Of a stretch of DNA of 64,000 nt, positions 1,086-39,800 are shown piece after piece; the first letter of the stretch is position 1, and each line of letters starts with the position of its first letter. The DNA lies in the IMG/VR virus record IMGVR_UViG_3300002138_000190, positions 26,516 through 90,515 of that record. The stretch is one strand, 5' to 3'. Position numbers and translations under genes: made by a program. The notes beneath the pieces were generated by a model. It was not told the DNA's origin. It did no database searches and was given only the letters and a program-made list of their open reading frames with translations. The stretch is from a virus.

Positions 1086-2516
1086 TTACACAATAAAGTT
1101 TGCAATGGATAACCTAGCATAAAACTTGCTACCTTCACGCAAAAGTTTCTTACCATAACGAGTAAGAATACCTCGTCTTGGACAGAAGCTCTCAGGATCA
1201 AGAACGGTAGGAGTTTGTGTCAAAGGTACATATGGGCAGTAGAAATAACCGCTATCCATGTAACTATCACCCTTGTAGCCCATCAACAACTGATTGGTTG
1301 GGAACAATGGGTCTTTATATAATCTCCAGCGATTATTAATCGTACCAACATACTGTACACCTAAAGAAGAGGTGAAAGTTTCAGAAGGTGCAGGAGCGAA
1401 ACCAGCAGTTGCGGTTTCAAATACGCTTGCAACTTCAGGGGATGTTACGATAAAATTCGCTCCACCACGAAGAGTTTTACGATGAATAACATTAGATACT
1501 TCAGTTACCTTAACATATAAGGATTCATACTTTTCTTTAACGGTTTCGCCAAGAGCAGTAGAATAATCCCAAGCTGCAACAGTACCAGCATTGTTTCTAA
1601 GGTCAGTCAAAATTTCACGATCAATTTCAAGATTGATTTCTTGTGCCAATACAGCTGTCAATTCAGCTTCAGCATCAAGATTGTGTTGGCTACGAAGATC
1701 TTGTTGAGCTTCATAAGACCACACAGCTTTGAGCTTACGAGTCTTAGCAGCAATTTCTTCAGATTCAATAACAAGATTGATTTCAGGAAGATCCTGATTA
1801 CATTCCATGTTATATTCATAGCTAATAGTGGTATTATGTGTGCCAGGTGTACCACTCCAAGTAAAGCTAACAAGACCAGTAGCTAAATCTAAAGTAGCAG
1901 CTGTCACAGTTTGTGCTGGCGAGCCAATAGTTACTGGTATAAATACACCATTAGAACTAAAGCTAAAGGTTTGTGACATTGTTCCAGCAAGATAAATACT
2001 TCCAGTAATAGTACCAGCAAGAACTGGTGTGTGTTCTAATACAAAAGTAGTTGCAGCAGCAGCACCAGCATCAGGATGGTTTTCGTTTTGAACGAATTGG
2101 CTACTGTAATAGATGCTCAAGTTAGCAGTACCATCTGCTAATTGTTGCAAACTATTTGCATCATCGCCAGGAAAGCCACCATTGTTGGAAGCTCCACGGA
2201 TAGACCCCTTGTTAGAGGAATAACGGAACCTAAGATAGTATACTAATCCTGTAGGCCCAAGAAGGGGTTGTACAGAAACAATTTTATTAGCAATTAATTG
2301 GGGATAGATTCTTCTAACCAATGGAATGCTAATGCGTTTGAACTGAGCAACATCACTTGTGTCAGTTGAAACTTCGTTAATAAGTCTTTGGTTCTCAAGA
2401 AGCACAGCTGTAGCAGAACGGAGATAACGATCACCGATCCCATCAAGAATGCCAGTTGAGGACCAACGAGATTCGAGTTCTTTAGACTCGTTTAAAAATT
2501 TTGAAATAGTATTCAT
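1086..2516 (-). CDS. gp23: Major capsid protein, T4 gp23-like
   Basis: Motifs IPLVRR, SVQPLLGPTGLVYYLR, KTRKLKAVWSYEAQQDL, EINLEIDREI, GYKG, YCPYVPL, GILTRYG. Confidence 0.97.
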   Translation of the reverse strand: MNTISKFLNESKELESRWSSTGILDGIGDRYLRSATAVLLENQRLINEVSTDTSDVAQFKRISIPLVRRIYPQLIANKIVSVQPLLGPTGLVYYLRFRYSSNKGSIRGASNNGGFPGDDANSLQQLADGTANLSIYYSSQFVQNENHPDAGAAAATTFVLEHTPVLAGTITGSIYLAGTMSQTFSFSSNGVFIPVTIGSPAQTVTAATLDLATGLVSFTWSGTPGTHNTTISYEYNMECNQDLPEINLVIESEEIAAKTRKLKAVWSYEAQQDLRSQHNLDAEAELTAVLAQEINLEIDREILTDLRNNAGTVAAWDYSTALGETVKEKYESLYVKVTEVSNVIHRKTLRGGANFIVTSPEVASVFETATAGFAPAPSETFTSSLGVQYVGTINNRWRLYKDPLFPTNQLLMGYKGDSYMDSGYFYCPYVPLTQTPTVLDPESFCPRRGILTRYGKKLLREGSKFYARLSIANFIV

Positions 2517-2535
2517 TTTGTTTTAGCCTTTTAAA

Positions 2536-3438
2536 TTAAAGTTTTTTAATGCCAGATAAAACTAGCAATTCGTTGTTTTCGTCACCTTTTCCAGAGTTAT
2601 ATTCCGCAATAACCTGTACTTTATTGGTATCGACATGACCTCTCCCCGATACATTCTTTGCTTTCTCAGTTCTTTCTTTCTGTTCGCTGATAAATTTGTT
2701 TCTTTTATCAGATTTCGATTCACTATTGTTTTTGTTTTCATTAACATAATGATTGAATTTTTTAACCGATTCATGAAGTTTAGTGTTGTCTGTCGAAAGT
2801 CTAATATTTCTAGCTTCCAACAAACGAACTTGATTTCTTAATTCTTCAATAGATTTAGAAGCTTCATTTAATTTAGAAGAAGTAGCAAAAGTACATTCTT
2901 CGTTCTTTAAATAGCTAGAAGTAATATCAGCAATTTTGTCCAAGGCAAGCTTGTGTTCTACAAGTGCTGGATCGCTGAGGATATCTTTCTTAGCTTGTTC
3001 GTAAATTTCTACACCCTTTTGTTGCAAGAATTGATCAACTTTTTCTACAATATAGTTTTTCATTTCTGCAAGTTTACCATCATATTCTTCATAAAGTTCG
3101 GTTTCGATGTCTTTATTTTTTTCTCTTTCTGAAAGTAACATGCTATATGCTTCTTCATATCCTTCTTCAAGAGTTTTGTTAAACTCTTCAGATTGGAGTT
3201 CAAGTCTATTTCTGAGATCAGAAATAATAGCATATGCTTCTTGGTATCCTGTGTAAGCTGTTTTTTCAGCACTTTCCAAATCTTGAGAAAGTTGTGAATA
3301 TGCATCTTCAAGATTTTTGTTATATTCTTTTTCCATTTCTTCTTTAGCTGAACCTAACATATCCTGTACAGCTGAAGAAACTTCGTTGAATTGATTTTCA
3401 GGAAGTAATTTTTTCAAAGCTTCTGTAATTTTGTCCAT
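2536..3438 (-). CDS. Prohead core/scaffold protein (gp22-like position)
   Basis: Acidic coiled-coil protein of 300 aa located between the prohead protease and the major capsid gene. Confidence 0.75.
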   Translation of the reverse strand: MDKITEALKKLLPENQFNEVSSAVQDMLGSAKEEMEKEYNKNLEDAYSQLSQDLESAEKTAYTGYQEAYAIISDLRNRLELQSEEFNKTLEEGYEEAYSMLLSEREKNKDIETELYEEYDGKLAEMKNYIVEKVDQFLQQKGVEIYEQAKKDILSDPALVEHKLALDKIADITSSYLKNEECTFATSSKLNEASKSIEELRNQVRLLEARNIRLSTDNTKLHESVKKFNHYVNENKNNSESKSDKRNKFISEQKERTEKAKNVSGRGHVDTNKVQVIAEYNSGKGDENNELLVLSGIKKL

Positions 3439-3440
3439 TC

Positions 3441-4094
3441 CTAACCTCTCTTTAAATTGGAAGTATAATTATTGATAATCCCGCCTAACGCAGCAATTAA
3501 CGCATCTTTGTTAACTTTATCTATGCTTGAAGATGTATTTTTTACTGAATAATTTGGAATAAATTGTGGAGAATGTGAAAAACCTTCTCCAGTAATTTTT
3601 TGCTGAAACGCTCCGTGAGTTGATGGATCAGCAACAACATCAAATGTTATAAGCTTATATCCTTCAGATATAACCAAATGACCTTGTTCGTTTGTTTTAC
3701 CGCTACCAACACCACGACTACTTATTCCTGGTGGAATACCGTCTTCTAATAAAGCACGAAGGGTTCTCCCATATGGAGTGTTTAAAGTTTCTCCTTCGCC
3801 CATTAAATTATTGCCATCCCACCAAAGTTTAGTAATAACATGAGAAGCTTTTTCATAATGAACAATAGAATCAGTTGGATGATCAAGTTCACCAACTAAA
3901 CCTCTTTTTTTTATCAAATCACTTAAAGCTTCAACATTTTGCCTTAAAACATTTTCGCTGTATATTCTGCCATTTTTGTTAACTTCATTTACGGCTTGAA
4001 ATTTACCACGAAAACGCATTCTGCCATTAGAACCTTCGTTAATTTGCATATTAACATTATTATTTTGACAAGAATCTACAAGTAGCATGCTCAT
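3441..4094 (-). CDS. gp21: Prohead maturation protease, T4 gp21-like
   Basis: NKNGRIY, GELDHP (His), GISSRGVGS (Ser), ITFDVVADPS (Asp). Confidence 0.95.
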   Translation of the reverse strand: MSMLLVDSCQNNNVNMQINEGSNGRMRFRGKFQAVNEVNKNGRIYSENVLRQNVEALSDLIKKRGLVGELDHPTDSIVHYEKASHVITKLWWDGNNLMGEGETLNTPYGRTLRALLEDGIPPGISSRGVGSGKTNEQGHLVISEGYKLITFDVVADPSTHGAFQQKITGEGFSHSPQFIPNYSVKNTSSSIDKVNKDALIAALGGIINNYTSNLKRG

Positions 4095-4105
4095 ATAAAT
4101 CTCCT

Positions 4106-5803
4106 TTACTTTTCACTATCGTTAAGATGTTTAAAGCTTTGATCTAGTGTCATACCATTTTTTGGAAGATATGGGTTAGATAAATTAGGCCAAGTGTCAT
4201 TGCCCTGATTGGTAGCTAAATTATCAGAATCTGTAACATTTGGACTATCATCATTAATTTTTGGTTTTACATCTTTTAAGATGTATGGGTTTGAAAGATT
4301 TGGGAATATGTCTTTGCCACCAGATGTATGTGCGGAACCCATTTCAGCATCTAAATTTCCCGAATAGGATTTTCCGTCAGAAACAGGAGCAGCAGATTTC
4401 CAATCGCCATTGTATTTGCTTGGGAAAGCATCAACTTTAGCTAGTTTATCTGTATAAGGATTGCTTCCGTTTACACTTGTATGAACTTTGTCAGACACAT
4501 TCCAATCTTTTTGTGCCAAGGGAACATTAGATTCTACGATTGATGTTAAAATATTATTTGCTTCAACAAGAACATTGAAATCAATGTTTCTTTCTTTGTT
4601 TAAAATTTCTTCAACAGATTCTAGAACATTTTCAAGTCTAGCTTTAACAAGCTTATCATTTAAGCTAGAAGCAATTTTATGTGCATCAACTAAAGATGAG
4701 AAAGCATCATGAAACGCAGTTATTTCTCTGCGATAATCTTCATCAATTTTAGGATAAACAATTTCACTTACTTCAGCAAACTTTTCGTAATCATTGCTAT
4801 TTTCTAAACCAGCAGTTTTGAAAACTTTAGCTACACGGTCTTCGTAGATATTGTGAGCAGTACGAAGAATAGCATCAGCCATAAATTCACAACTTGAATC
4901 GTCATAATTGTGAGCGTTTGCGTTGTTTAAGCATTCTTTTACGATGCCAGATAATTCTCTTTTTGTAAAATAAACAATACTTGGCCAAGCACTTACAATA
5001 TTTTCTAAAGTTGCTTCAATAAGAGCAACATCAGAAATTGCATTTGCATGACGAAGATCATTCATAGCCTTGGAAAAAATATTTTCTTTGACTACCTTTT
5101 TCATTTTTGATCGTTGGTAGGTAATTTCAGAACTTGGAACTTTCCAGTCAAAAGAAAGAATTTTTCCTTCATTTCTTATTTTTAGAGTTGGAATTTTTAC
5201 TGAAACAATATTGTTTTCGTTGTCTTCATTTACCTTAACCATATTTTTCAAAGGAGAACCCTTTTTATAGTTAATTAGTTCTGCAATGTTTTCGCAAACA
5301 GCTTTCCATTCAACAAGTTTTCTTTTGTTAATATTTTTGCTGAATTGAGAAAACTCATTGATTTTTTCATTTTGTTTGGTTTCGACAATTTTATTTCTTT
5401 TTCCTCTTATGCTTTCTCTGAAAACTTTTTTATTCAAAGGAAGTTTGATATAGGAATTGAAGAAACTGTCAGCATTTTCATTTTTATCATCAATTATTGA
5501 CTCAAGCATGGATGATAAACTTTGCAATGAAGATATTCTCTGACTTTCTTCATTTACAATTAATTCTTTTATGTTTTCCAAAAGAAGATTTTGATTATCT
5601 ACTTTATAAGAAGCGTGAACAAAGTTACTGTCTGGTGTTACAAATGTAACTTCATTTTCATTAATACAATGTACAGTCAAACTTTCTACCTTCAATTTTT
5701 CGGCAATTATTTCAGCAGCTTCGTTTATTTCTTTCAAAGCTACATTAATAGATCTTTTTTCTAAGCCGTTAATAACATCTATGTCTATTAGTTTTCTCTT
5801 CAT
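4106..5803 (-). CDS. Probable prohead core or internal head protein
   Basis: Long ORF directly upstream of gp21; ATG at 5803 with RBS GGGAG (track start 5821). The C-terminus has repeated PNLSNPY motifs. Confidence 0.6.
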   Translation of the reverse strand: MKRKLIDIDVINGLEKRSINVALKEINEAAEIIAEKLKVESLTVHCINENEVTFVTPDSNFVHASYKVDNQNLLLENIKELIVNEESQRISSLQSLSSMLESIIDDKNENADSFFNSYIKLPLNKKVFRESIRGKRNKIVETKQNEKINEFSQFSKNINKRKLVEWKAVCENIAELINYKKGSPLKNMVKVNEDNENNIVSVKIPTLKIRNEGKILSFDWKVPSSEITYQRSKMKKVVKENIFSKAMNDLRHANAISDVALIEATLENIVSAWPSIVYFTKRELSGIVKECLNNANAHNYDDSSCEFMADAILRTAHNIYEDRVAKVFKTAGLENSNDYEKFAEVSEIVYPKIDEDYRREITAFHDAFSSLVDAHKIASSLNDKLVKARLENVLESVEEILNKERNIDFNVLVEANNILTSIVESNVPLAQKDWNVSDKVHTSVNGSNPYTDKLAKVDAFPSKYNGDWKSAAPVSDGKSYSGNLDAEMGSAHTSGGKDIFPNLSNPYILKDVKPKINDDSPNVTDSDNLATNQGNDTWPNLSNPYLPKNGMTLDQSFKHLNDSEK

Positions 5804-5988
5804 AATTTTTTTACTCCCCAATAGGTTTCAACAATAATTAATTCTATATATTGAAGAAATCTTTAATTTTCTTACAAAATAAATGATTTTTGTGATTTAT
5901 AATCTTTTCAAATATATTTTAAATTCTAAACAGTAAATAACTTGAAATCATATAAAGTTACAATATGTATTAGTGAAAGTTATAATTT

Positions 5989-6297
5989 ATGACATCTTTT
6001 AAAAATTTTTTAAATTGTAGAGAAGCATTTCAAGTTGGAGTTGAAAAAGATTACCAATATGACATGGAAGAAATATTTCAAGCAGCTAAATTTTATATTG
6101 TTAAAAATCCAAAAAAAATGAAAGATTTTTTAACTAAAGAAGCAGAAAGAGATGATGACTTGAAAAGCAATATTCACTTTTCATCTTTATTAAATAAAAA
6201 TAAAAATACTGAAGATAATCCTATTAAGCCTTTAGGAGATTTTGTTGGTTATGATATGGGTAAGCCAACACAATCTCCCATAGGGGATTTAGATTAA
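5989..6297 (+). CDS. Hypothetical protein with an internal-protein-like N-terminus (MTSFKNFL)
   Basis: 102-aa ORF in a gap, converging on 6294..7502. Confidence 0.6.
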   Translation: MTSFKNFLNCREAFQVGVEKDYQYDMEEIFQAAKFYIVKNPKKMKDFLTKEAERDDDLKSNIHFSSLLNKNKNTEDNPIKPLGDFVGYDMGKPTQSPIGDLD

Positions 6298-7502
6298 CTT
6301 CCTTTTATGGAAGCAATTTCTTGTAATATTTTTGAAATATTATTTTCATTTGACTTTAAAATGTTTTTAATCAAAGGCAATTCTTTTTCAATTTCTTGAT
6401 ATTGAAAAACTGTTTGGATGTTATTCTCCGATAAAAACAAGATAACATCTTTTCTTTTTGTTTTTTGGTGAAGTCTACCGTTTGGAAATTTATCACACAT
6501 TGGGAATGCAAGTTTAAAGATTTCTGGCTGTGATAAATTATAAGAAACCATTGGATTTCCTGGTATTTTAGTAATTTCCTTCTTATTCAATTTGTAGAAT
6601 CCTTTGTATTGACTAAAAGAAAATATTTTATTCTCTCTTAAAAGACAAAGAAAATCTTCAAGTGAAATTATTTCCTTGTGTTTAACTCTATCTTTGCCCC
6701 ATACCAAATCTAGAAATTCTGAGAATTTTATCTTATTGATTCTGTGAAAATTAAGATTGATCTTGTGATCAGGATTATTTTTCATGTAATCTTTGAAGTG
6801 CTTTGTAGATGTAATATTATTACTTAAGAAAATATCTTTTATTTCATCAATTGATGAAGTTTTAATTCTGTGAGGAAAATATTTATCGAAGAAATCGGAT
6901 TCTCCCATGTTAAATCTATCCCAAGGCCTTGAGGGAATAGAAATAGTATCTTTGTTTTCAAGATAAAACTTTCGGTGCATTCTACTGGAACATAAATTAT
7001 TATCTTGCATTATTTTTATTAATTCATCATCTGACACTTTATATTCTTTTTCACTCTTTTTAATTTTTGCTCTATCAGGTATTGCTAAGTCTAGAAAATC
7101 CCATGCTGGCATGTTGTATTTTATCCAAGGATTAGCATAAACACCATTTAAGTTGTCTTTGTTTTCGGTGTAGAATTTTTGGTAGTCTTTGATTGTATAG
7201 ATTTTATTTGATCTTATTATTTCAAAATGATCTTCAATACTTAACCTAGTTTTCTTAATGTAAATTGATTTGTTCCTAGTTGGGAAAATTTTATTAAAGA
7301 ATTGAATGCATGAGATATTATCTTGATTTAACAACCAAGGTTTTCTTGGTAATTGTTTCCCATCAATTTTACCTTCATTTTCCACACAAAACTTTAAATA
7401 TTTTCTGTGGTTATGTAAATTCTTTTCCAGCAGAATATTAATAATTTCTTCTATTGAAAAATCACTACTGTTTTTGTTAAAAATATGATTTCTGCTTGAC
7501 AT
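6294..7502 (-). CDS. Protein of about five tandem repeats resembling the phage-integrase repeat unit; putative DNA-binding protein
   Basis: Repeated units such as YQKFYTENK...YANPWIKY, HRKFYLENK...PSRPWDRF and YKGFYKLNK...PGNPMVSY. Confidence 0.55.
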   Translation of the reverse strand: MSSRNHIFNKNSSDFSIEEIINILLEKNLHNHRKYLKFCVENEGKIDGKQLPRKPWLLNQDNISCIQFFNKIFPTRNKSIYIKKTRLSIEDHFEIIRSNKIYTIKDYQKFYTENKDNLNGVYANPWIKYNMPAWDFLDLAIPDRAKIKKSEKEYKVSDDELIKIMQDNNLCSSRMHRKFYLENKDTISIPSRPWDRFNMGESDFFDKYFPHRIKTSSIDEIKDIFLSNNITSTKHFKDYMKNNPDHKINLNFHRINKIKFSEFLDLVWGKDRVKHKEIISLEDFLCLLRENKIFSFSQYKGFYKLNKKEITKIPGNPMVSYNLSQPEIFKLAFPMCDKFPNGRLHQKTKRKDVILFLSENNIQTVFQYQEIEKELPLIKNILKSNENNISKILQEIASIKGS

Positions 7503-7552
7503 TTCTTCTCCTTTGATTTAAAAGTAATAGTGTTATTATTGCAGAAATAATA

Positions 7553-8788: not shown

Positions 8789-8848
8789 CTCCTTGATGAT
8801 AAATTTTTGTTTATATTACAAAAAAATAACTTAAAATCAAGGATTTAA

Positions 8849-11389
8849 TTAGAAATATTCTTCTTCGCTGAAATCTATTTCTTCGTTGTCTTGTTCGGCT
8901 GCGTAATCTTCAATGCCCATGTCGAATAATTCTATTTCTTCAGGAGTTGGGTCTGGCAATGAACTTGGTTGGTTTGACTTTCCTGAACTTTGTTTGCCTA
9001 TTTCAGGAACAGAAGGCAATTCTGATTCTTTGTCATTCAAAGCTGGCAATTCTCCTTCAGGAGATAAATCTGGATTTGGCCCTTCTGGTGTTGCTCCAAT
9101 TTCTGGATTTTCTTTTGATTGTTCATCTGCTGGAATTCCAATTCCTAGCAATTGAGGATTTTGTCCTAATATTTGCATTTTGGCATCTTCAAGTTTTTGA
9201 ATTTTGAGCCTTGCTAACATTTCTTGAGTATCATCTATAGAATACTTTAAATATTTTGTTATGATGTCGTAATCAGATAGCAGTAAGGAAGATTTTATTG
9301 TTGATGCATTTGTAATTCTTGCAGTTATAACATCTGCTCTGCTTAATTCTCTCCAATCACTTGGAGGTGTCATTTTAATCATAAGGTCATTATAGCTTTC
9401 CTTGGGATAGCCTTTAAGCCTTAAATGTCTATGAGCTATTTCCCAAATGCCATCTTCTACCGCTGATTGAAATCTTTCAACAAGTCTAGCAAATCTGCTA
9501 TCTTGAGAACTCAATGTCATTTTAGTTATTGAGAAATCATTTGCTTGAAAATAACTTAAGGGGAAATTCAAGGAAATAAATAATTTTTCTTTGAAGTAAT
9601 TAACATCAGATACCTCACCAAGATTAGTAGCTCCTGGTAGTGTTTCAATTTTAGTTTGTGAATTAGGTCTTGTGGGTAGCCAAAAATCTTCGTCAATTGC
9701 AGGAGCATGCCATCTTTCATCTATGGATGATGCACCACCTCCACCAAGATTACTTGTTGTAGCTTTTCGTTTTCTAAACTGTGATTTCATTCTTTCAATA
9801 AAAGCTTCCGCTTTAAATGGTGGTAAAGTGCCAACATCTATATAAAAAATTCTTCTCTCAGTACTTCTGGATAATCTATAAACTAACATTGCATCTTCGC
9901 ATAACCGTAATTGTTGTGCTGGCCCTCTTGCTGGCTCAATTACACTTACACCATATGGATAAAATGTTTTTCTGTCTTCTCCAATTCGCAAATGAACAAT
10001 CTGTTCTGGAGCAAATCGTATCGCAGTTGCACTCATTAATTTTGCATCATCTGTGTCAACAACAGGAGAGGAAAGTAAAGATGTGTAATCTGGCCCTTCT
10101 TTACTTTGTTGGAACTCTATGCAATTTCCTTTTGTTGTTTCAATTCTGTACATAGAATCTGCTGGCAATCCTGTTATTTTGTAAATACCTTCTGTGGGAT
10201 TTTCTTGATTAATAATAATTTCCCAAAATAAATCTCCATGAGCTAAAAGATTTTTAAAATCAGACCATAATCTACGATTCATATTCAACATGCTTCTGTG
10301 AAAAAACAAAAAGTTCAACTCTTCTTTTACATCTTGATTTTCACAACGAATATCAAAAACATTGTTATCGTTGTTTCTTTGGCAGTTGTGTACAATAATC
10401 GAATCTGTTGCAAAATTATGATGTTTTTCAACAGTTAGATCATATACTTCTTGGATAGAACCTTTTTCTATACTTAAAACTTTTCTTCTGTCTTTAAATG
10501 TTTTTAAATATTTGATTTCCTTAAATGAAAAACCATGATTTTTCAATCTGTATTGAGTAGTTCGTCTGTGAACCTTTGTTTTCATTGAGACATCTTTTAT
10601 TTTCATGCCAGCAGATATCAATCTGGTGGTCATATTAATAAGATCATATTTATCAATGTCTTTTTCGGCTTTGAATTCATCAACAAATTGTCTTTCGTGA
10701 ATCCAGCCTTTATTGTGAGTGAAAATTCTTGGATATTGTGAAATTTTTGATTGTGTTAAATCTTGATTAGGTTTTATTCTATAAAAAGGCATGATTTCAT
10801 CAAATGGTTTGATTTTACCAGCTTCTATCCAACTTCCATCTCTTTTTAATATTTTGTGATCTTCTGTACATTCTAAAAAGGAAGCATTGTCAAAATAAAC
10901 TTTAATAGTTTGGCTAGTTTTTGTAATTCTTGGATCATATGCCCAACCCAATGTGTAATCTTTTTTCTCAGAATCATAACAATAAACTAAAAATTTTTCA
11001 TTTTTTTTTGTTTCGTAAAGTTCCTTCATAGTCTTTAAGCCAAAAGGAGTTGAAATTTTTGTATCACCTGAAATACAAGCTTCATCAGAATAAATGTTTA
11101 AAACAGTTTCTATTTCTGGCATGGCTCTTAAACGATCATACTCTTTGTAACGAGACATTCTATTTGCAATAGTTGATAAATCAATAAAATCATTGCTTTC
11201 TCTGAATCTAACTATTCTTTGATCTTGAGAGCCGTAAAACCCACCATCTGGGCTTAATGAAGGAACTGAATCAGGTTGTGAAATCCCTGCACCAATAATA
11301 TCTTTGGTTGCTATTTTTTTAGTCAAAGGGTCTTCGGAAAAAGCATATGTGAATGTTTTATAAAAATCAGCCCAAATTGGAGATGGCAT
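8849..11389 (-). CDS. gp20: Portal protein, T4 gp20-like, intein-containing
   Basis: RYKEYDRL, EQIVHLR, YGVSVIEPAR, EDAMLVYRLSRSTERRIFYIDVGTLP, EDFWLP, IETLPG. About 615 aa after intein removal. Confidence 0.95.
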   Translation of the reverse strand: MPSPIWADFYKTFTYAFSEDPLTKKIATKDIIGAGISQPDSVPSLSPDGGFYGSQDQRIVRFRESNDFIDLSTIANRMSRYKEYDRLRAMPEIETVLNIYSDEACISGDTKISTPFGLKTMKELYETKKNEKFLVYCYDSEKKDYTLGWAYDPRITKTSQTIKVYFDNASFLECTEDHKILKRDGSWIEAGKIKPFDEIMPFYRIKPNQDLTQSKISQYPRIFTHNKGWIHERQFVDEFKAEKDIDKYDLINMTTRLISAGMKIKDVSMKTKVHRRTTQYRLKNHGFSFKEIKYLKTFKDRRKVLSIEKGSIQEVYDLTVEKHHNFATDSIIVHNCQRNNDNNVFDIRCENQDVKEELNFLFFHRSMLNMNRRLWSDFKNLLAHGDLFWEIIINQENPTEGIYKITGLPADSMYRIETTKGNCIEFQQSKEGPDYTSLLSSPVVDTDDAKLMSATAIRFAPEQIVHLRIGEDRKTFYPYGVSVIEPARGPAQQLRLCEDAMLVYRLSRSTERRIFYIDVGTLPPFKAEAFIERMKSQFRKRKATTSNLGGGGASSIDERWHAPAIDEDFWLPTRPNSQTKIETLPGATNLGEVSDVNYFKEKLFISLNFPLSYFQANDFSITKMTLSSQDSRFARLVERFQSAVEDGIWEIAHRHLRLKGYPKESYNDLMIKMTPPSDWRELSRADVITARITNASTIKSSLLLSDYDIITKYLKYSIDDTQEMLARLKIQKLEDAKMQILGQNPQLLGIGIPADEQSKENPEIGATPEGPNPDLSPEGELPALNDKESELPSVPEIGKQSSGKSNQPSSLPDPTPEEIELFDMGIEDYAAEQDNEEIDFSEEEYF
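10385..11077 (-). mobile_element. Intein (231 aa) in the portal gene
   Basis: Block A CISGDTKI, block B ECTEDHKIL, block F VYDLTVEKHHNF, block G IIVHN followed by Cys+1. No LAGLIDADG motif visible. Confidence 0.93.
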
Positions 11390-15519: not shown

Positions 15520-15521
15520 TT

Positions 15522-30957: not shown

Positions 30958-30966
30958 ATAGTTGTA

Positions 30967-33198
30967 TTAATAATTACCCATATACCATTGTTTTAATCTT
31001 GTTCTATTTGGCAAAGAAGAAAAAGTTAAATCTATGTTGTTGAATTTAATAAATGTTTTAGGACTATAATCATAAGATATATATGCTAAATGATCATTAT
31101 CAGATGTTGCTAATAAAGTATTATTTTCATTATTAAAGCCAATTACATTTTTATCTTGTAGTGAAACAAATGAAACAGAGTTGTTGCCTGTGCCAGCAGT
31201 ATACCAAACACTTCCAATATCATCAAAAACTGATATAGCTCCAGAATTATTAAAGAAAAATAGCCCATTGCTCATATTTACTAAATCACCTTCAAGCTTA
31301 ACTGAGCCAGCAATATCTGTTAATTTTCTTAATCCACTAATTGCATTTCCAACTGTTGCTATAGTTCCATAAAAGCTAAAAATTCTTAAATTCGTTCCGC
31401 TAATGATATTTCTCAATATATATCCTGCATTATTTTTCCATGTTGTTCTGTAAATAGAAAAATCACCAGTTAAATTTTCACCTGTTGAAGGGTTAAAACT
31501 ACTTGGATTTACTGTTAAGTCTAATGCTGTTCCTTGAAAATTTGAACTATTAAATGTTGTATTTGAAACAGATTGAGTTGTTAAATTAAAAACTTGTAAA
31601 TTTAAATTAGTTGGAGATGAAAAAGGAACAGTTGCTGTATTGGGCAAGCCAAACATAAAATAAGCAAACGAACCAGTATTTAGAAAAGTCCAGTTGTATG
31701 GTCTTAAAAAACTAGTTTGAGTACTATATGTTTTTTCAAACCCATTAAATATATTAACATTTATTTCTTCAACTGTTCGAGGTTCTATATTTGTTCTTCC
31801 ACTAGCCCAAAACAAATAAGAATTTCCTGAAAATCCACTAGTTTGATAGGTAGCTGGACAAAATCCTACATTTCTTGCAAATTCATATTTTTGAATATCT
31901 TCATTTGCTGTTCCATTCAAAAAAGAATTGTCTGTTCCTAAGTTTAATATTGGTGTTTGTGGTGTTTTAAATGTTTCTGAGATTAGACCAAATTCAGTTA
32001 CTTGTACTTGGGATGTAGATTGATCACCATATAATAACAATGTGTAAAGCCACATCCAAATATTTTTGTTTTCTATAATATCAATTGCATCGTTAACAGT
32101 TGTAATCCTAAAAGAATTTGATAATGTGTCACATCGTAGTATGACATCAAAAATGCCACCTGTATCATACAAAGCAGTAGTGACAATATCGTTTCCATGT
32201 GTTAAATCATCAGAAAAATTCCAGTTATAAAATTCAATAGGATCAATTGGATTTCCATATTGATCTACTTCTTCTCCAGCATAGGTTCTGCCAGTAGAAG
32301 GATTTATTCCAGATGGAATGCGAAAATAAATTAAACTGTTTGTAGGTGCTCTAACAGTTAATCCTGTAGTGGATTGATATGGTTGTTCGTCAATATATAT
32401 TTTTGCAATATCTGGTGCTGGAAATCTTGCATCAATTAAATCTTCAAAAATTAAAGAATCGCTGCCAAATTTATTTTTTATTGTGTATTTTACAGTATAA
32501 ACACCACTTATTTCATAAGTTTTTGTAATTATTTGATTTGAACTTAATGTTTCGTCTGAATCATTTTTGTAATTGAATGTTTTTATATCTCCATCACCAA
32601 AATCCCAAGTAGTTTTTATAGCATTATCAGCATTGTCAGTTGCTGTCCTAAAGCTTAAATCTGTAAAATCAACAGTAAAAGGTACAATTCCTATTTTTTT
32701 ATTTGCTGATATCCAAGCTTTTGGCTTCAACGCAACACTTCTCAAATAATTTATTCTTTCTTCTAAAGATCCTACTTTTGGAATTAATCCAACATCTCCA
32801 TAAATGCCAGAAAATTTTTCAATATTTACAATTGAGTCTTTAATAGCGTTGTGATGTTGTGCTACAACATTCATTATTAGGGTTGTTATTTTTGCTTTTT
32901 TAGAAACATTTGGAAAGCCTTCTAATATTTCAATATTGTTGAAAGTGCTAGTAGCATTATCTTTTGAATTGTAGAAAAAACTAATAGCTCTTTCATCAAT
33001 TTCTGCACATTGATCTGTTAGTGTTATGATACCACTTGGTGGAAACATGGCCATTTCTGTTGCAGAAGCATTTGAAACTATTGTTTTGTCACCAACATTG
33101 TAATCTTTAGCTAAGCTTGTTACTAATGAGTCTTTAACAACATAAGTATTAGTATCTGTGTCAATTATATCTGGATATGTAATTTTTGGTAATGTCAT
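30967..33198 (-). CDS. PKD-domain virion appendage or receptor-binding protein
   Basis: Shared N-terminal domain (VVAQHHN), PKD motifs WDFGDG and WNFSDD, and a beta-rich C-terminal half. Confidence 0.75.
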   Translation of the reverse strand: MTLPKITYPDIIDTDTNTYVVKDSLVTSLAKDYNVGDKTIVSNASATEMAMFPPSGIITLTDQCAEIDERAISFFYNSKDNATSTFNNIEILEGFPNVSKKAKITTLIMNVVAQHHNAIKDSIVNIEKFSGIYGDVGLIPKVGSLEERINYLRSVALKPKAWISANKKIGIVPFTVDFTDLSFRTATDNADNAIKTTWDFGDGDIKTFNYKNDSDETLSSNQIITKTYEISGVYTVKYTIKNKFGSDSLIFEDLIDARFPAPDIAKIYIDEQPYQSTTGLTVRAPTNSLIYFRIPSGINPSTGRTYAGEEVDQYGNPIDPIEFYNWNFSDDLTHGNDIVTTALYDTGGIFDVILRCDTLSNSFRITTVNDAIDIIENKNIWMWLYTLLLYGDQSTSQVQVTEFGLISETFKTPQTPILNLGTDNSFLNGTANEDIQKYEFARNVGFCPATYQTSGFSGNSYLFWASGRTNIEPRTVEEINVNIFNGFEKTYSTQTSFLRPYNWTFLNTGSFAYFMFGLPNTATVPFSSPTNLNLQVFNLTTQSVSNTTFNSSNFQGTALDLTVNPSSFNPSTGENLTGDFSIYRTTWKNNAGYILRNIISGTNLRIFSFYGTIATVGNAISGLRKLTDIAGSVKLEGDLVNMSNGLFFFNNSGAISVFDDIGSVWYTAGTGNNSVSFVSLQDKNVIGFNNENNTLLATSDNDHLAYISYDYSPKTFIKFNNIDLTFSSLPNRTRLKQWYMGNY

Positions 33199-33199
33199 T

Positions 33200-34225
33200 T
33201 CAACTCACAATTAATTCTTGTTGGAGATAAACACTTTTTACATTTTGTGATTCAAGAGTATCCAAAAGATAAGGTTGGTATTTGCCAGGTTCTTGATATT
33301 GATAAGTTACAACATGGATATTTGGATCTATATAATTTTCAGTTGTGCCATCACCAAACGAAAAAAATCTGTTTGTTATATTTAAATTTGTTTGATCAAC
33401 AAAAATAAAGGTAGTTGGAGCAATATTTAATTTTTGGGCAGTTGATTTTGAAATACCGCCAACTCTAGGTAAAACATAAAAGAAAGGAGCTTTTTGTTCA
33501 ACATTTGAATTTATATAATTTGCTTTTGTGATAATTCCTTGTCCACCTAAGCTATTAATAACATTTAATTGAACAGTAAATAAGCCTTCTTCTGTATAAG
33601 TATGAATTGGGTTTTCTTCTGAAGAAGTAGAAGTATCGCCAAAATCCCAAAAATATTTATTACCTTTGCCAAGTGTGTAATTTTTAAAATTAACTTTAAA
33701 TGGAGGGGAGCCAGATATAGGATATGCTCTAAATATTGGTTTTGGGTTTAAAATAGTTGTTTCTAATGAATTCAAAATGCCATTTAAAGATTGTTCTAAT
33801 GGTTCTGATTTTTTACCTAATTTATTTTCAATGTTCAACACAGCATCTTTGATGGAATTATGATGTTCTGCAAAAACCCCTGAATAAACTGGTGTGTCTT
33901 TTGGCCATTGTAAAATTCTACTGTTTTGAAATCCTCTAACAAGATCCATAAATGTATTGTCTGTTTTTTTAAAATAATAAACAAACTCACTTATTCCATC
34001 TTTTGATTTTAAAGATCCTATTTTTAAAATTCCTTGAGATGGAAAATTAGTGGCATCTTCAATTGTGATTTTTTTAGAACCCATGCCTATACCAATTTTC
34101 AATTTTCCTTCAGCTAAATTTCTCGCTTCAAATAATGTTTGATACGAATCAATATTTGAAGGGAAGTCAGACAAATATCCTGTTTGGTAATATGGATCAT
34201 ATGATGATATTTTTTGTAACGACAT
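33200..34225 (-). CDS. PKD-domain virion protein
   Basis: AEHHN motif; PFKVNFKN...YFWDFGD...NPIHTY...G.FTV.L is a canonical PKD pattern; second PKD motif FSFGDG. Confidence 0.8.
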   Translation of the reverse strand: MSLQKISSYDPYYQTGYLSDFPSNIDSYQTLFEARNLAEGKLKIGIGMGSKKITIEDATNFPSQGILKIGSLKSKDGISEFVYYFKKTDNTFMDLVRGFQNSRILQWPKDTPVYSGVFAEHHNSIKDAVLNIENKLGKKSEPLEQSLNGILNSLETTILNPKPIFRAYPISGSPPFKVNFKNYTLGKGNKYFWDFGDTSTSSEENPIHTYTEEGLFTVQLNVINSLGGQGIITKANYINSNVEQKAPFFYVLPRVGGISKSTAQKLNIAPTTFIFVDQTNLNITNRFFSFGDGTTENYIDPNIHVVTYQYQEPGKYQPYLLDTLESQNVKSVYLQQELIVS

Positions 34226-34229
34226 AATA

Positions 34230-34237
34230 TATTTATA
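34230..34237 (-). promoter_or_regulatory. TATAAATA late-promoter-like motif
   Basis: Ends 4 nt before the ATG at 34225 with no SD. TAAATAGAGTT at 34242-34252 also occurs at 25532-25542. Confidence 0.5.
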
Positions 34238-34254
34238 TTTAAACTCTATTTAAT

Positions 34255-34935
34255 TTAATTGGTTTTTGTGTTTTCTTTGTTAACTTGCACAAGCTTGTCT
34301 TGTATGTTTTTTAATGAATTTACAAGTTGAAGTTTTATTTGATTGTTATCTGGCAAAGCTAAAACAGTTTTGCAAAGTTCTAAATCAGTTGGTAGGTTTA
34401 ATAACAATCTCAAATTAATTTCTGATCCTAATTTTGCAGACCAAAGTTCGTTTTGAAGATTAAAATCATCCCAATTTTTAATTTTTTCTATTTTTTCTAA
34501 TTCAGAAAAGTTTTTAACAAAGAAAATTAGCTCTTCTTCAATCATTCTTTTCTTTTTGAGTAGTTTTTCTTTTATTATATCTTTTTTATTGTTTGTTCTT
34601 TCTAGTCTTTTCTTCTTTATTTCAATAATTTTAGATTTAAGGTGATTATTTTCAATTTTAATGTTTTTATTTAAATTTTTAATCTTACTTTCTAAAATTT
34701 TAATTTTTACTTCAAGTATTTCGTAATTTTCATCAAAATGTATGATTTCTTCTTCTAATGATATTAAAGTTTCTAATCTAGGTGATATTTCTCTAACACA
34801 TTGCCATAGCTTAGATTGAATTGTTGGTTCTTTTCCCAACACAAAATGTCCTAGTTGGTAATAAGAATGCCTATCTTTAAGATCAACTGTTTTAAGAATA
34901 TTTTCAGCTTGATCAGTTACTGTTAATTCGTTCAA
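34255..34935 (-). CDS. Coiled-coil hypothetical protein
   Basis: 226 aa with a long E/K/I heptad region. Confidence 0.7.
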   Translation of the reverse strand: MNELTVTDQAENILKTVDLKDRHSYYQLGHFVLGKEPTIQSKLWQCVREISPRLETLISLEEEIIHFDENYEILEVKIKILESKIKNLNKNIKIENNHLKSKIIEIKKKRLERTNNKKDIIKEKLLKKKRMIEEELIFFVKNFSELEKIEKIKNWDDFNLQNELWSAKLGSEINLRLLLNLPTDLELCKTVLALPDNNQIKLQLVNSLKNIQDKLVQVNKENTKTN

Positions 34936-35483
34936 AATTTAACTCCCACTATTGATTTAAAAGTTCCACCAAGTTTAATTGCACCATTTGCCCATAATAG
35001 CTTAATAACATCTTCAGGATTTTCTTTGCCGAAAAATCCAATTTCATTGTAAAAATTTTTATTTATAAGCAAACATTCAATTGGGTTTTTAAAAAAATCC
35101 CATAATCTGTTTTTAACAGGAAAGATTATATCTTTTTCAGATTCAACAAAATCTGAAAATTTTCTTATAATTGATTTTGGCAAATGCAATCCACTTAATA
35201 CTATGAAACACCAATCTTTGGTACTTTGGGTAATTGCTTTGTCAAACAACACAAATTTTTCTTTGCTTTGTACAACTGTAAGTTTAAAATCACAATCAAT
35301 TTCTGTATTAGTAATTATTTGTTTGTCATATTCTGCAAAAATATTTTTGTGGTGGAACAATGTTTCTTTAATGCTATTTTGATTACCATCTAAAGAAACT
35401 ACTGAAATACAAACATCTAATTTTTTTGGCCAATTAATCATAATAATTCCTTTTAATTTCTTATTATAATTGATTGGCAACAA
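34932..35483 (-). CDS. Eroded GT2-like (GT-A fold) protein
   Basis: KAITQSTKDWCFIVLSG (DxD position lost) and LLINKNFYNEIGFF...LLWANGAIKLG resemble GT2 core motifs. Confidence 0.4.
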   Translation of the reverse strand: MLPINYNKKLKGIIMINWPKKLDVCISVVSLDGNQNSIKETLFHHKNIFAEYDKQIITNTEIDCDFKLTVVQSKEKFVLFDKAITQSTKDWCFIVLSGLHLPKSIIRKFSDFVESEKDIIFPVKNRLWDFFKNPIECLLINKNFYNEIGFFGKENPEDVIKLLWANGAIKLGGTFKSIVGVKF

Positions 35484-35497
35484 TAAATCAATATGAT

Positions 35498-36289
35498 TTA
35501 TGGAATTAATGACACATCAAAATCAATTTTGATTACATCATAAGGAGATAATTCATATTCTAAATAAAAACCAATTAAATCTACATCAACAGTAAATTTG
35601 TTAGATGTCCATGTGTTAATAGTATTTGGGTCATAAGAAGGTCTATAATTTTCAACATCACTATAAATTTGAACACCATTTACGAAAACTCTTAGTGAAT
35701 TTTCCATTATTGGCTTTGATAATCCAGTAGTATAGTTTCTATAATCAGGTATTAAATATTTTGCTGTTGGAGTAACTGCATAGTAATGTTGATGTGCAGC
35801 TTCTTTAGGGAACTTAAGTTCTGCTGTAATATTATTTGGGCTTGTAACTATCCATTCTAATGAATTGCTATTATTAAATTTTATATTTCCACTTGGAAAA
35901 TAAACGGCATTGCTAATGCTTTCAAATTCTATTGTTAATTTATTTGCTTCACCTTGAATTAAATTTAATTTTTGTCTTTCAGATAATTCCATTCTTACAT
36001 AATCAACATCATTATAGCTTCCATCTGTATGGTGTCCAATATTGTGAAGTGTATTGTTAACTTCAGACACGATTAAATTTCCATTAGCTGTTAAGCTTTG
36101 ATTTAATCTAGATGTTAAGTCTAATCTACTGCCAGCAGAAAAATTTAAAATTTCGGTATTTCTATCAACTGCATCACTAATTACATCTTCACGAATTGCA
36201 ATAGTTGAAATTGGAAGATTGTCATAAAGAAAGTGGTATGGTTCAATACCAGTAAATGTCGGTATCGGGAATAAATTAATATTTGGCAT
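35498..36289 (-). CDS. Probable tail/baseplate structural protein
   Basis: 263 aa within the tail operon; LRVFVNGVQI beta motif; TAAATA 4 nt upstream of the ATG. Confidence 0.65.
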   Translation of the reverse strand: MPNINLFPIPTFTGIEPYHFLYDNLPISTIAIREDVISDAVDRNTEILNFSAGSRLDLTSRLNQSLTANGNLIVSEVNNTLHNIGHHTDGSYNDVDYVRMELSERQKLNLIQGEANKLTIEFESISNAVYFPSGNIKFNNSNSLEWIVTSPNNITAELKFPKEAAHQHYYAVTPTAKYLIPDYRNYTTGLSKPIMENSLRVFVNGVQIYSDVENYRPSYDPNTINTWTSNKFTVDVDLIGFYLEYELSPYDVIKIDFDVSLIP

Positions 36290-36318
36290 ATTTTATTTAT
36301 TACTTTTGCTTAAATAAA

Positions 36319-36828
36319 TTACAAAATATTGATATTCCAACTGAATGTAATTTGAATTTGACTTGTTTTTGCTATTCCACTAAAAGTTGATAACGAATAC
36401 AAATCATTACTTCCCATTTGCAACCCAATTTCACTAATTGAATATCCATTGCCATCATTAAAGCCTAGTACTGCTGTAAAAATTGCTTGGCTTGAATTGT
36501 TTGGGTTTATCAAAGAATTAACTTGTTTTGTTGCTACTGTAATTCCGTACATGCCATTTTGATTTGCATTTACTGCTCTTGGAACACCGCCAACTTCACC
36601 ACCGTTTCCAAAAAGCATGTTTTTTACGAAAAAAGGAAAAGCATACTCAAACTGCCCACTTGTGTTAGAACAAGCTTGTAGGGTATGAGTTAAGGCCTTA
36701 ATGATTGCTTCCCTGCCAGTTTTTAAAATGGCATTTTTGAAAGGCTTTATTGTTTTATTGCCATTCTTATCTTCGATGGTAATTTCTCCATAGCCTATTG
36801 ATTGAATGTTAGAATTAATTTCGTTCAT
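36319..36828 (-). CDS. Tail fibre/collar-type baseplate protein
   Basis: FTAVL...NG..ISEIGL...LYS..TF..IAKT...ITFSWNI pattern, typical of fibre-attachment domains. Confidence 0.65.
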   Translation of the reverse strand: MNEINSNIQSIGYGEITIEDKNGNKTIKPFKNAILKTGREAIIKALTHTLQACSNTSGQFEYAFPFFVKNMLFGNGGEVGGVPRAVNANQNGMYGITVATKQVNSLINPNNSSQAIFTAVLGFNDGNGYSISEIGLQMGSNDLYSLSTFSGIAKTSQIQITFSWNINIL

Positions 36829-39800
36829 GTTAAATTTCCTTCAAATGTTTGGCCATCAACTGTTTCTATTTTAAAACCAATATTTTCTTCTTGCTTTATA
36901 ATATCATTGATCTTGCTATTTTCCCCTTGTTTTTCCAAAGAAGAAATAAAATTTGCTCCGAATGCAAATGAACTTGAATTACAAATGTTTAGCACCATAT
37001 TATTTTCATCAACACCAGTTATTTCATCAAAACCAGTTTTATCTACGGAACAAACAGTAGAATTTTCTTGTGTGCTGTATTCATAGTCAATTTCAAAAAA
37101 ATAATTTGTAGGTATGCTGCTCCAAGAAAATAAAATTTGGCCTGTGGAAAATACAATTTCTCCAGATATTACCCTAGAATAATTTGTATTAACATCGTTA
37201 AATTTAAAAATTCCAGAAGGACTTATTGAAAAAGTTTGAATCATTGATTGCCTGTAATATATTCTACCATTTACGCTTCCTGCTACAACAGGAGTATTTT
37301 TTAATGTGACATTGGTAATTTTATTGGTGTGATTTGCTTGAAAAGATTCATTTACAACTTTTTTATATTTATTATTCTGAAATGCATACTCATTTTTTGT
37401 CAATTGAATTGAGTTGACAGAAAGAGATGTTCCACCAGCTAATTGTGTAGTTAAATCTAATTTTAGACCACCTAATATCAAATAATCTGTAACTCCTTCT
37501 GAATAATAATCTTCTATTTTATATAAATTATCATCGATTACCAATATAAAGTTCTCTTTGAATTGATTGTTTTCAACAGCATCCACAGAATTAGGATTTT
37601 CAATTTCTAACATACTGGTAGGTTTTTCAATAACCATGCCTTTATAACTTAAATTACCAGTTGTTTCTTCTACAATTCTATTTAATACCTTGCCAGATTG
37701 ACCTATAACATTTCCATTATTCCAAGAACAAACCACAAATACATTTTCTTCAAAACCATATTCTATAATTTGATATTGTTCATTTAGTAGAGAATAATAA
37801 AAGTAATTTCCAATTTTCAATCTTTCTATAGCATTGCCAAAATTACCATCGTTAATTGTTACTATTCCATTGTTGAAGCAAAATAAAGTTCCGTCAAATG
37901 AAGTGTAAATGGAATCATTATTTGAATTTAATAGTTCATAGTTAATATTGTTTATACTTAATGATTGTGTAAGTGGTGGCAATGTATTGTCATCTTTCAG
38001 CACAACACTTCCATCAGTATTAATTGCACTTATAATGTAAACATTATAAGCACTTGGATAAGATGTGTAATATTTTATTTTCCAAGGATTTAATGGGTTT
38101 GTTTCTTCTGATTCAACATTATTGTCCGATATGGAATTTTTCAAGAAAACATCAGAGAATATGAAAATATTTCTTTGTGTGACATTTATGTCTGTGCCAG
38201 AATAAATTGCATTGCTTAATCTATATGCAAATTGAGATTGGTTTATTGGTTGTGTTAATAAAGCTTGTTCGTAAATTTCAATGTAATTCTTTTCTGGATT
38301 TAATACAGTATAAACTCCTTGATTTGGAGAAGGTGATAAAATTTCCAAATATGTATTTGGTCTATTAGTAACAGTCAAACTTGCAAAATTAATCAAGGGA
38401 GAATAAAGAACAATTTTCTGATTGAAACCTATAACTGAATCAGTTCCTAAGTTGATTTGTGTAGCAAGTACGGATCTGGTTACTTGTCTTGTTGTTAAAC
38501 CTAAAAACATATCTCTGTTAAAAAGTGTTTGTGGATAATTAGCTAAAAGATTTTCTGCACCAAAATAACTTATTAATATTTCAATGTTTTCTTCTGGAGG
38601 AAGAATGTATTCATTTAATAATCCAGAATAATTCAATGAATGTAATATTGCATGAAAAGGCTTGTTTTCTTTTATTACTTGCAGAGCTTCATTAATTCTT
38701 TCGGGATTTAAATCTTCAATAGTCAAATCACAATTGAACAATGTTGTAATAAAACCACTACAAGGATCAATGAAATTTTTATCTATGTCACATGGGTTAT
38801 TACTATCTCGCAAGGAACCATTATATTCATCCATGTTGTAAATGTTTTCAGAATAAGCAAAATCAGTTCTAACTTGACCAAAAACTATTGGGTCGTTAAA
38901 AGGATTTTTAGTTGGAATAACTTCATTTAAGAAAACATCATCTTCTGCTATAACTTTCGCATTCCAATTTTTAGGAGGATAGGTAATGTTTAAATCATCC
39001 CTGAAATCTGCTAGAGATAAAGATCTCAAATAATTTTCTATAGTTTGCTCAACAGGATCAGCAATTTGTTTTATTTGATATAGTATTTTTATTGTGTCAT
39101 TATTTTTAAGACTTGGCCCATTCCATGTTAAAATACTTACAAAATTAAATGTCTCAATGCTGATGTAATTTAAAGGTTGTTCAATGAATTCTCCAGAGCC
39201 TTCTCTGAGATGTACTTTAAAATTATCAGAATTTATTGGCAAACTTACTTTAGATAATTCAAATTCACTTTGAGTATTTAAAATATAAAAGACATCTGTC
39301 CAAGTATATCTTGAATATACTTGATACAATTGTGTGAGTTTTTCTAAATTTATTCCAGCATCTCCTAGTGCTGATTTTAATCCTTTTAATGTTCCCTTCA
39401 TTTTAAAATTAGGAACTGCTTTTGCTATTTGTCTTCTCCATCTAATTGGATCATTTGATGAAAAACTTAACCTGTAAAGGTTTCCTAAATATGCAAGAAA
39501 ATATTCTGGAATTAAGTTGTAATCCAGTAATCCAGAAATGTTATTTGCTAAATTTTCTAATACAGCAAAAGAATCTCCAACTGCTAAATTAAAATTATTT
39601 AAAACTTCTGGAGATATATCTGTAGGACTTAATTGTTGTTTGTAAACTTCTGGCATATACTTGTTTAACAAATCAGGATATTTGTTTTTATCTGTTATAA
39701 AATTAGCTGGAATTAAATATTTGTAAGAATCAGAAGATAAAGAAAAAAACAAACTAGATGATAATTTTTGTAGAGAAACATTAGGTCGCCAATTCCAAGC

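Follow-up and report, generated by a model that had tools for sequence, protein, structure and literature searches.

A beta-sandwich domain shared by the major capsid protein and a baseplate wedge protein of an uncultured huge phage

The 64,000-nucleotide stretch of viral DNA analysed here (the window) encodes a gp23-type major capsid protein and a baseplate wedge protein that share one homologous domain of about 100 amino acids. Its family is broad and unnamed and comprises widely reused surface modules, and the baseplate protein acquired its copy once, in a small subclade of a large huge-phage baseplate family. Taking the evidence together, we consider it probable that a capsid I-type sandwich was inserted once in the baseplate protein, where it would act as an exposed accessory module. 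The features on which this account is built are collected in Table 1.

Table 1. Location of the two domain copies, their genes and the surrounding baseplate locus in the window.
Feature	Coordinates	Strand	Details
gp23-type major capsid protein gene (P0001)	1086..2516	(-)	476 aa; Pfam Gp23 E 2e-87; PHROG major head protein E 8e-84; T4 gp23 structures E ~3e-33
I-domain linker 1 of capsid protein	2079..2180	(-)	residues 113-146; GFPGDD..SLQQLA..IYYSSQFVQNE motif; precedes the sandwich
Beta-sandwich I-domain of capsid protein	1797..2078	(-)	residues 147-240; hypervariable part; family profile E 5e-38
Baseplate wedge protein gene, P2 gpI / T4 gp7 type (P0002)	36825..40301	(-)	1158 aa; weak Tail_P2_I match, residues 241-318, E 0.0026
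Inserted beta-sandwich domain of baseplate protein	37059..37388	(-)	residues 972-1081; core match 982-1080 = 37062-37358; profile E 7e-30
Conserved C-terminal tail of baseplate protein	36828..37058	(-)	residues 1082-1158, 77 aa, downstream of the insertion
169-aa gene downstream of baseplate gene, possibly fibre/collar related	36319..36828	(-)	Phage_tail_fib N-terminal match weak, E 4e-4, below cut-off
Tract of about 1.3 kb, ~99% identical to IMG/VR locus L017	36100..37400	.	surrounding region 94-96% identical; sliding-window nucleotide identity
gp6 / P2 gpJ-like baseplate wedge subunit	40298..41845	(-)	515 aa; phrog_219 E 1.5e-28, phrog_6 E 9e-10; syntenic in 65 related loci
gp25 / gpW-like baseplate wedge subunit	41850..42275	(-)	Pfam GPW_gp25 E 8e-17; phrog_43
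Baseplate hub/spike protein with OB domain	42391..44610	(-)	Pfam Phage_base_V E 1.3e-6

An earlier note on this DNA had counted 28 identities over 78 gapless positions between capsid residues 158-235 (nt 1812-2045) and baseplate residues 998-1075 (nt 37077-37310), and a recount returns exactly this figure. BLASTP carries the gapless match further, to capsid 142-240 and baseplate 982-1080, where 33 of 99 columns are identical (61.6 bits, E-value 6e-14). It is significant by shuffling: under Smith-Waterman alignment the two proteins score 150, where 300 shuffles of the capsid sequence average 45.7 +/- 6.6 (z 15.8), and the domain alone scores 148, versus 27 +/- 4.9 over 2000 shuffles (z 24.9). 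These tests, together with conservation across the domain family, rule out a chance or compositional similarity. At the nucleotide level, the two copies are 49% identical, and 42% at third codon positions, so that they represent an old homology at the protein level and not a recent DNA duplication. The same nucleotide identity rules out that the copies exchanged sequence recently inside this genome, as does the finding that the baseplate copy matches the capsid proteins of other phages better (72 bits) than the window's own. An assembly chimera is ruled out by the presence of diverged carriers in independent assemblies and samples: the baseplate protein with its insert recurs in six more protein clusters (P0170-P0175; ENA and Logan assemblies), where the inserts have diverged, and in two IMG/VR contigs from different samples. 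Searching the 115,879-bp record, ~23% of the genome by CheckV, with two profiles in six frames yielded no further copies of the domain.

The capsid copy sits where the earlier note had placed it, at the position of the T4 gp23 I-domain: the flanking residues 56-102 and 236-456 align to residues 23-69 and 184-423 of mature T4 gp23, and the block is inserted between the N-terminal strand and the part of this gp23-family protein that holds the E-loop equivalent and the spine helix. The comparison extends to the wider gp23-family I-domains (P1 gp23, the S6 capsid protein, T4 gp23/gp24), in that the window's capsid copy occupies the same place in the HK97-like fold as in T4 and is preceded by a linker, which we call linker 1 after the usage for T4 and P1 (PMC9546572, PMC12810830). 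The window's second copy differs from this arrangement, residing in a non-capsid protein and lacking the linker. Linker 1 is conserved at 82% among capsid homologs, and over 60 further proteins of the family have its motif ahead of the domain as well. The sandwich that follows is far more variable, with a mean identity of 52% across 119 homologs, versus 92% for residues 241-476. In T4, the I-domain lies over an adjacent subunit within its capsomer and strengthens it (PMC9546572), while the P1 I-domain has been described as protruding from the capsid (PMC12810830). The capsid domain of the window probably acts in the same way, as a surface protrusion that braces the adjacent subunit.

AlphaFold2 predicts the baseplate insert to be an eight-strand beta-sandwich with a pLDDT of 95.9, set in a region that is otherwise poorly modelled (pLDDT 59 for the last 299 residues of the protein outside the insert). 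Its closest solved structure is a capsid I-domain, that of P1 gp23 (9ukm, residues 200-305; Z 9.2, rmsd 2.9, 93 aligned residues, 19% identity), which bears out the earlier reading of the block as a beta-sandwich. P1 gp23 is the sole chain among 48,161 with a Z of 8 or more, and is followed by the capsid protein of jumbo phage S6 (7x30, Z 7.9); the C-terminal domain of T4 gp9 scores Z 7.3. The chains of T4 gp23/gp24 are not among the top 50 structural matches of the model, and Foldseek against the PDB gives no match below E 0.001. At the level of sequences and profiles, the family profile finds only the P1 I-domain in the PDB, weakly (E 0.27), and T4 gp23 and gp24 gave no significant match; hhalign aligns only a 9-residue TGT(V/I)YL motif with these two proteins, at the right place, with a probability below 1%.

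The earlier note had proposed a transfer specific to head and baseplate, and this part did not hold up: by profile search the domain occurs in 202 clusters at the 50% identity level, in a family that is centred on the window copies because these two seeded the profile, and it is built into many architectures that include bacterial surface proteins, a breadth that the note itself had taken to tell against specificity. Its members range from small phage proteins, tandem arrays and truncated paralogs of the capsid protein to secreted enzymes and giant bacterial surface proteins, and the proteins that bear it also have fn3, PPC, cadherin, RTX, GH81 or phospholipase C domains. No name for the domain came from Pfam, PHROGs or the ESM Atlas. 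Identity with a named phage Ig-like family (I-set, fn3, Big_2 and relatives) was rejected, as Pfam gives nothing for the window domain, even with the E-value limit raised to 1; of 38 family members, just one shows an Ig-type match, a weak one to Big_3_5. Pfam DUF7015 (PF22839) was rejected as well, with scores below its 35.2-bit cut-off (22.3 bits for P0020), overlap in one of the 38 members and no match of the model to the window's contig.

In the baseplate protein, the block is a true insertion relative to the protein's own family. Two insert-free homologs, P0176 and P0177, which are 72-74% identical to the window protein, align to residues 3-971 and 1082-1158 and skip residues 972-1081, and a group of relatives at 55-57% identity has about 23 residues at the insert site. 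The insert, 104-110 aa long among carriers, thus lies between a conserved body (1-971) and a 77-aa tail that aligns to the C-termini of insert-free homologs at 57-61% and 29-34% identity. Within the baseplate family, the domain is found in only 7 of 67 clusters and in 2 of 73 IMG/VR loci. Because the baseplate copies form one clade (support 100/96, and 99 in another tree), we attribute them to a single insertion event. Following this acquisition, the insert diverged much faster than the rest of the protein, as it is 34-41% identical among carriers whose bodies are 73-77% identical. The monophyly of the copies also disfavours repeated cassette swapping as the cause of this divergence.

Where the insert came from is less firmly indicated. 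A direct copy from capsid to baseplate is plausible from the sequence comparisons, because the best pairwise matches of the baseplate copies are capsid domains: once matches within the baseplate group are set aside, seven of eight score highest against a capsid I-domain, with a margin of 10-18 bits. The trees leave this undecided. In one, the clade of baseplate copies falls in a polytomy together with capsid lineages; in others, made with FastTree or quick ML, the baseplate copies stand beside those of giant bacterial proteins and not beside the capsid copies. Neither a place with the bacterial copies nor one with the capsid copies is supported, and an AU test on the capsid-to-baseplate origin does not separate the alternatives (p 0.40). 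The domain is present in all capsid proteins of the clade but in few of the baseplate proteins; therefore, any direct transfer ran from capsid to baseplate. As donor, a capsid-type I-domain from the phage's own lineage is the most likely candidate.

The identity of the receiving gene is indicated by a match below the Pfam cut-off together with its homologs and its neighbourhood. On the window protein, PF09684 (Tail_P2_I) scores 18.1 bits against a cut-off of 20.6, and precomputed hits show that more than half of its 66 homolog clusters carry this domain. The Phage_base_V, GPW_gp25 and phrog_219/phrog_6 matches lie directly upstream, giving the gene order hub/spike, gp25/W, gp6/J, I and then fibre genes, which is kept in 64-65 loci. 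The protein resembles P2 gpI, T4 gp7 and T6SS TssG in its N-terminal region, which appears to be that of the family, and in the canonical order gp25, gp6/J, I, and differs from P2 gpI in being far longer, with a large C-terminal extension and, in its subclade, the extra sandwich.

The insert, the C-terminal tail and the 169-aa gene fall together inside the ~99% identical tract, and dS, which is 0.20 across the gene body, drops to 0.03 within the insert and to 0 in the tail. This sequence pattern indicates that the insert and the 169-aa gene are co-inherited in a recent recombination tract and that the 3' end of the baseplate gene is recombination-active. Such co-inheritance would suit a structural clamp, in which the insert would rest against a neighbour (the next wedge, or the fibre/collar-like protein of 169 aa) and reinforce that contact or change its specificity, much as the I-domains of T4 and P1 brace adjacent subunits (PMC9546572, PMC12810830); T4 gp9, whose C-terminal domain has the similar sandwich mentioned above, is a fibre connector. 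We nonetheless regard the clamp as unlikely. The 169-aa gene and the gene order are kept in 64 loci whether or not the insert is present, which argues that no partner depends on it, a fixed interface would not usually diverge in sequence as strongly as the insert does, and the ~99% tract could reflect a single chance recombination event.

The domain is instead most likely an exposed accessory surface module, judging by analogy with other phage add-on domains. In the baseplate protein, it would be a dispensable module at the periphery of the wedge, near the fibre genes, its exposure being judged solely from its variability and dispensability. We expect that it would work like other Ig-like additions to phage proteins, either binding cell-surface polymers as a weak adhesin or serving as a spacer. 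The insert is presumably under diversifying or relaxed selection, its dN/dS coming from one near-identical pair with 4 substitutions. Dispensability in close relatives, confinement to a small subclade and fast divergence would equally be expected of a neutral passenger, a stable, self-folding domain that drifts without a role in a tolerant loop near the C-terminus. This is quite improbable, given that seven diverged lineages retain the insert unbroken and with every hallmark residue of the family, and that no truncated or decayed copies were seen among its carriers.

We find it very improbable that the capsid I-domain was copied to the baseplate so that head and baseplate share a docking site (for a decoration protein, a fibre or a glycan) or a glycosyltransferase acceptor, as the earlier note suggested. 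The idea draws on the homology of the copies, on the capsid domains being the best pairwise matches of the baseplate copies, and on the richness of both in Ser/Thr (28% and 21%, versus 16% and 14% in the rest of each protein), and it is countered because each copy evolves far more quickly than the protein that holds it, and the two show no mutual homogenisation: they are just 33% identical, with about two thirds of the identities at family-consensus positions by manual count; the weaker match to the window's own capsid protein than to those of other phages argues that they are not kept alike; each diverges quickly among close relatives, some of which have no baseplate copy; and Ser/Thr richness is a trait of the whole family. 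Were it true, the Ser/Thr-rich sandwich would be a common acceptor or docking surface, through which a huge phage coats two parts of its virion alike by reusing one domain.

Promiscuous Ig-like modules on virions are already well known as a phenomenon. Fraser and colleagues reportedly described them in 2006, with T4 Hoc as an example and with BIG2, FN3 and I-set additions to capsid, tail and baseplate proteins. The domain of the window is likewise a small beta-sandwich found on unrelated structural proteins of head and tail, variable and common to bacterial cell-surface proteins, and its baseplate copy is likewise dispensable in close relatives. It differs in being an internal insertion and not appended to an end, and in matching none of the named Pfam Ig-like families; the capsid copy differs further, as a fixed and universal part of the capsid protein rather than an optional add-on. 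Baseplate and receptor-binding proteins, as well as Ig-like domains, are over-represented in recent mosaicism (Smug et al. 2023, PMC10684548). The insertion of a shuffled domain and the recent recombination tract at the distal end of the baseplate gene follow the same pattern, with the difference that the other holder of the domain is here the major capsid protein, a class that the text of that paper does not name among those in which mosaicism is common (PMC10684548). The case is one of ordinary phage domain shuffling and not a special link between head and tail.

What the window offers is a clean, datable internal domain insertion in a conserved baseplate protein, with relatives that are 72-77% identical and have or lack the insert. 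On the head and baseplate of these uncultured phages, the domain would mark the fastest-evolving surface patches. It also ties the capsid I-domain of a large huge-phage clade, hitherto deemed capsid-specific, to a broad family of extracellular sandwiches in phages and bacteria, a link that may serve as a lead on the origin or the onward spread of gp23-type I-domains.

The observation of a domain shared by the capsid protein (gp23-type) and the baseplate wedge protein (P2 gpI/T4 gp7 type) is confirmed, and the interpretation that the earlier note gave it is supported in part. The block reported there translates to capsid residues 158-235 and baseplate residues 998-1075, and a recount of this gapless alignment gives exactly the claimed 28/78 identities. 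BLASTP aligns the two proteins without gaps over 99 columns, 33 of them identical (E 6e-14), and the match survives shuffle tests (z 15.8 for whole proteins, z 24.9 for the domains). At the DNA level, the copies share 49% nucleotide identity and 42% at third codon positions, so the relationship is old and detectable in protein only.

Coordinates of the capsid and baseplate features
Feature	Position	Strand	Length	Remark
Capsid protein gene	window 1086-2516	-	476 aa	
Conserved linker motif	capsid residues 113-146			precedes sandwich
Capsid I-domain sandwich	window 1797-2078; residues 147-240	-		hypervariable compared with the rest of the capsid protein
Baseplate protein gene	window 36825-40301	-	1158 aa	

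The window comes from a 115,879-bp IMG/VR virus record (28% G+C, estimated completeness 23%) and carries a T4-like structural module, among whose products are a prohead protease, a portal with an intein and the gp23-type capsid protein. Because the nearest named record, the uncultured phage LR756511.1 (capsid protein 75-78% identical to that of the window), measures 595 kb and related contigs reach 511-673 kb, we assign it to a huge phage with such a module. The portal gene (Portal_T4, E 7e-72; window 8849-11389, minus strand) has its intein splicing domain at residues 119-335 (E 4e-12).

In the capsid protein, residues 56-102 and 236-456 align to T4 gp23 structures and the shared block falls in between, as the earlier note had it, in the interval that the I-domain (insertion domain) and its linkers occupy in T4 gp23 (PMC9546572). 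By position the block would correspond to the T4 I-domain; profile comparison to T4 gp23 and gp24 gives no match to the domain. In a protein that is otherwise very conserved, the sandwich stands out as hypervariable: across 119 close homologs, 78-93% identical overall, it averages 52% identity to the window copy against 92% for residues 241-476, and one homolog that is 93% identical overall is just 72% identical in residues 132-241 (linker end and sandwich).

The baseplate protein has a weak Tail_P2_I match (PF09684 is found in most of its 66 homolog clusters), and its gene comes after those for a hub/spike protein, gp25 and a gp6/J-like wedge subunit, the canonical P2 order. Its copy of the domain is an insertion relative to the family, since alignments of the relatives P0176 and P0177 (72-74% identical) cover residues 3-971 and 1082-1158 but not residues 972-1081, hereafter the insert. 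Homologs in a 55-57% identity group have ~23 residues in its place, and alignments to more distant ones end past about residue 970. Carriers within the family are only the window protein, six homolog clusters (P0170-P0175), the C-terminal fragment P0010 and 2 of 73 IMG/VR loci; neighbouring gene order is kept in 64-65 loci, with or without the insert. Identity between carriers is 34-41% in the insert, compared with 73-77% in the protein body, and the baseplate copies form a single clade (support 100/96), which points to one insertion followed by rapid divergence rather than repeated swapping. P0177 and a further homolog, P0225, are ~1500 aa long and bear an intein (LAGLIDADG/splicing domain; PF14528, PF14890) after the residue aligned to 495 of the window protein, which is itself intein-free.

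A tract of ~1.3 kb holding the insert (about window 36100-37400) is ~99% identical to the IMG/VR locus L017, with flanks at 94-96%, and dS is 0.03 in the insert versus 0.20 in the gene body; together these mark recent recombination at the insert-bearing end of the gene. A second ~99% tract lies at window ~34000-34600, making the tail-gene region a mosaic within 92-96% identical sequence, a sign that members of the phage population have recombined recently.

An AlphaFold2 model of baseplate residues 982-1080 (38-row alignment; pLDDT 95.9) has eight strands and agrees with the proposed beta-sandwich. Searched against all representative chains, its best solved match is the phage P1 capsid I-domain (9ukm_A residues 200-305; Z 9.2, rmsd 2.9 over 93 residues), the sole chain with Z >=8. 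It is followed by the capsid protein of jumbo phage S6 (Z 7.9) and by phage tail and tailspike sandwiches; further inspection showed the T4 gp9 C-terminal domain at Z 7.3, and generic V-set Ig domains match at Z 5-6. The best BFVD matches are uncultured-phage capsid proteins and baseplate wedge proteins.

Where the baseplate copy came from is less clear-cut. Outside their own group, seven of the eight baseplate copies find their best match, by a margin of 10-18 bits, in a capsid I-domain of the same phage clade. In FastTree and quick ML trees, the baseplate clade groups with copies from giant proteins; in a careful mixture-model tree it shares a polytomy with capsid lineages, and a clade of baseplate plus capsid copies is compatible with the AU test (p 0.40). 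From these comparisons we lean slightly towards a capsid-type donor. A direct transfer, if there was one, must have gone from capsid to baseplate, since all members of the clade have the capsid copy and few the baseplate copy.

A transfer specific to head and baseplate, however, is not borne out. A family profile built from the two window copies and scored against 1.84 billion representatives (E <=0.001) found the domain in 202 clusters of 75-4508 aa, in some of which as many as seven stretches match (re-scoring gives four to seven), and this variety of holders makes the capsid-baseplate pairing non-specific. Holders include small linker-plus-sandwich proteins, tandem arrays, truncated capsid paralogs (I-domain, capsid A-domain region and C-terminus), a second Tail_P2_I protein with the domain close to its N-terminus, giant proteins that also carry fn3, PPC, cadherin-like, RTX or GH81 domains, and phospholipase C proteins bearing a planctomycete extracellular motif. 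Between one and four copies occur in related huge-phage genomes.

Many of the 100-150-aa members (P0017, P0029, P0049, P0108 and others) share a conserved start, MKN[YH]WL.K (MKNYWL in some), and some a conserved end, NW[IL]KEGF (such as NWIKEGF), around the linker-sandwich unit. The metagenomic truncated paralogs (P0016, P0114, P0005, P0030, P0041 and others; 260-440 aa) have one or two linker-I-domain units followed by a counterpart of capsid residues ~304-414, whereas the N-arm and residues ~241-300 are missing. P0016, P0114 and P0005, the three read fully, end in RLSIANFI as the capsid protein does. Such paralogs may have arisen from the capsid protein and be associated with the capsid. 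In the complete 511-kb phage genome G001, a 429-aa protein (locus L090, 1614-2903, minus strand) has the sandwich in its C-terminal half and, judged by eye, a small heat-shock (alpha-crystallin)-like N-terminal half. LR756511.1 encodes a free-standing 123-aa copy (L013, 1492-1863, plus strand) that adjoins a C39-type peptidase-like gene (by eye) and lies upstream of beta-rich genes that may be fibre-like. It also encodes a 186-aa protein that combines a Cys-rich N-terminus with the domain (L014, 1501-2061, minus strand), and a third copy near 306.6 kb is broken by a stop codon.

As to function, the insert most likely serves as an exposed accessory module, for adhesion or as a spacer. Close relatives persist without it, which marks it as dispensable; it lies near the C-terminus of the wedge protein, beside fibre-like genes, and contains 21% Ser/Thr versus 14% elsewhere in the protein. 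Ig-like add-ons on phages were reportedly treated by Fraser et al. in 2006. Dispensability, fast evolution, Ser/Thr richness, position and recombination all fit such add-ons and baseplate mosaicism, both known phage behaviour (PMC10684548). Downstream of the baseplate genes, 341-aa and 743-aa proteins with PKD domains (E 6e-19 and 6e-9; window 30967-34225, minus strand) are probably fibre or surface-binding proteins. The main rival to an adhesion or spacer role is that the insert would act as a clamp, as capsid I-domains do. Shared docking or shared glycosylation of the head and baseplate copies is disfavoured by their low identity, by the failure of two copies within one genome to homogenise, and by the rapid, independent divergence of each.

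The domain adds a new, unnamed member to the known class of promiscuous virion sandwich domains. Two things set it apart: it ties the gp23-type I-domain to that class, and its insertion in the baseplate protein is unusually clean.
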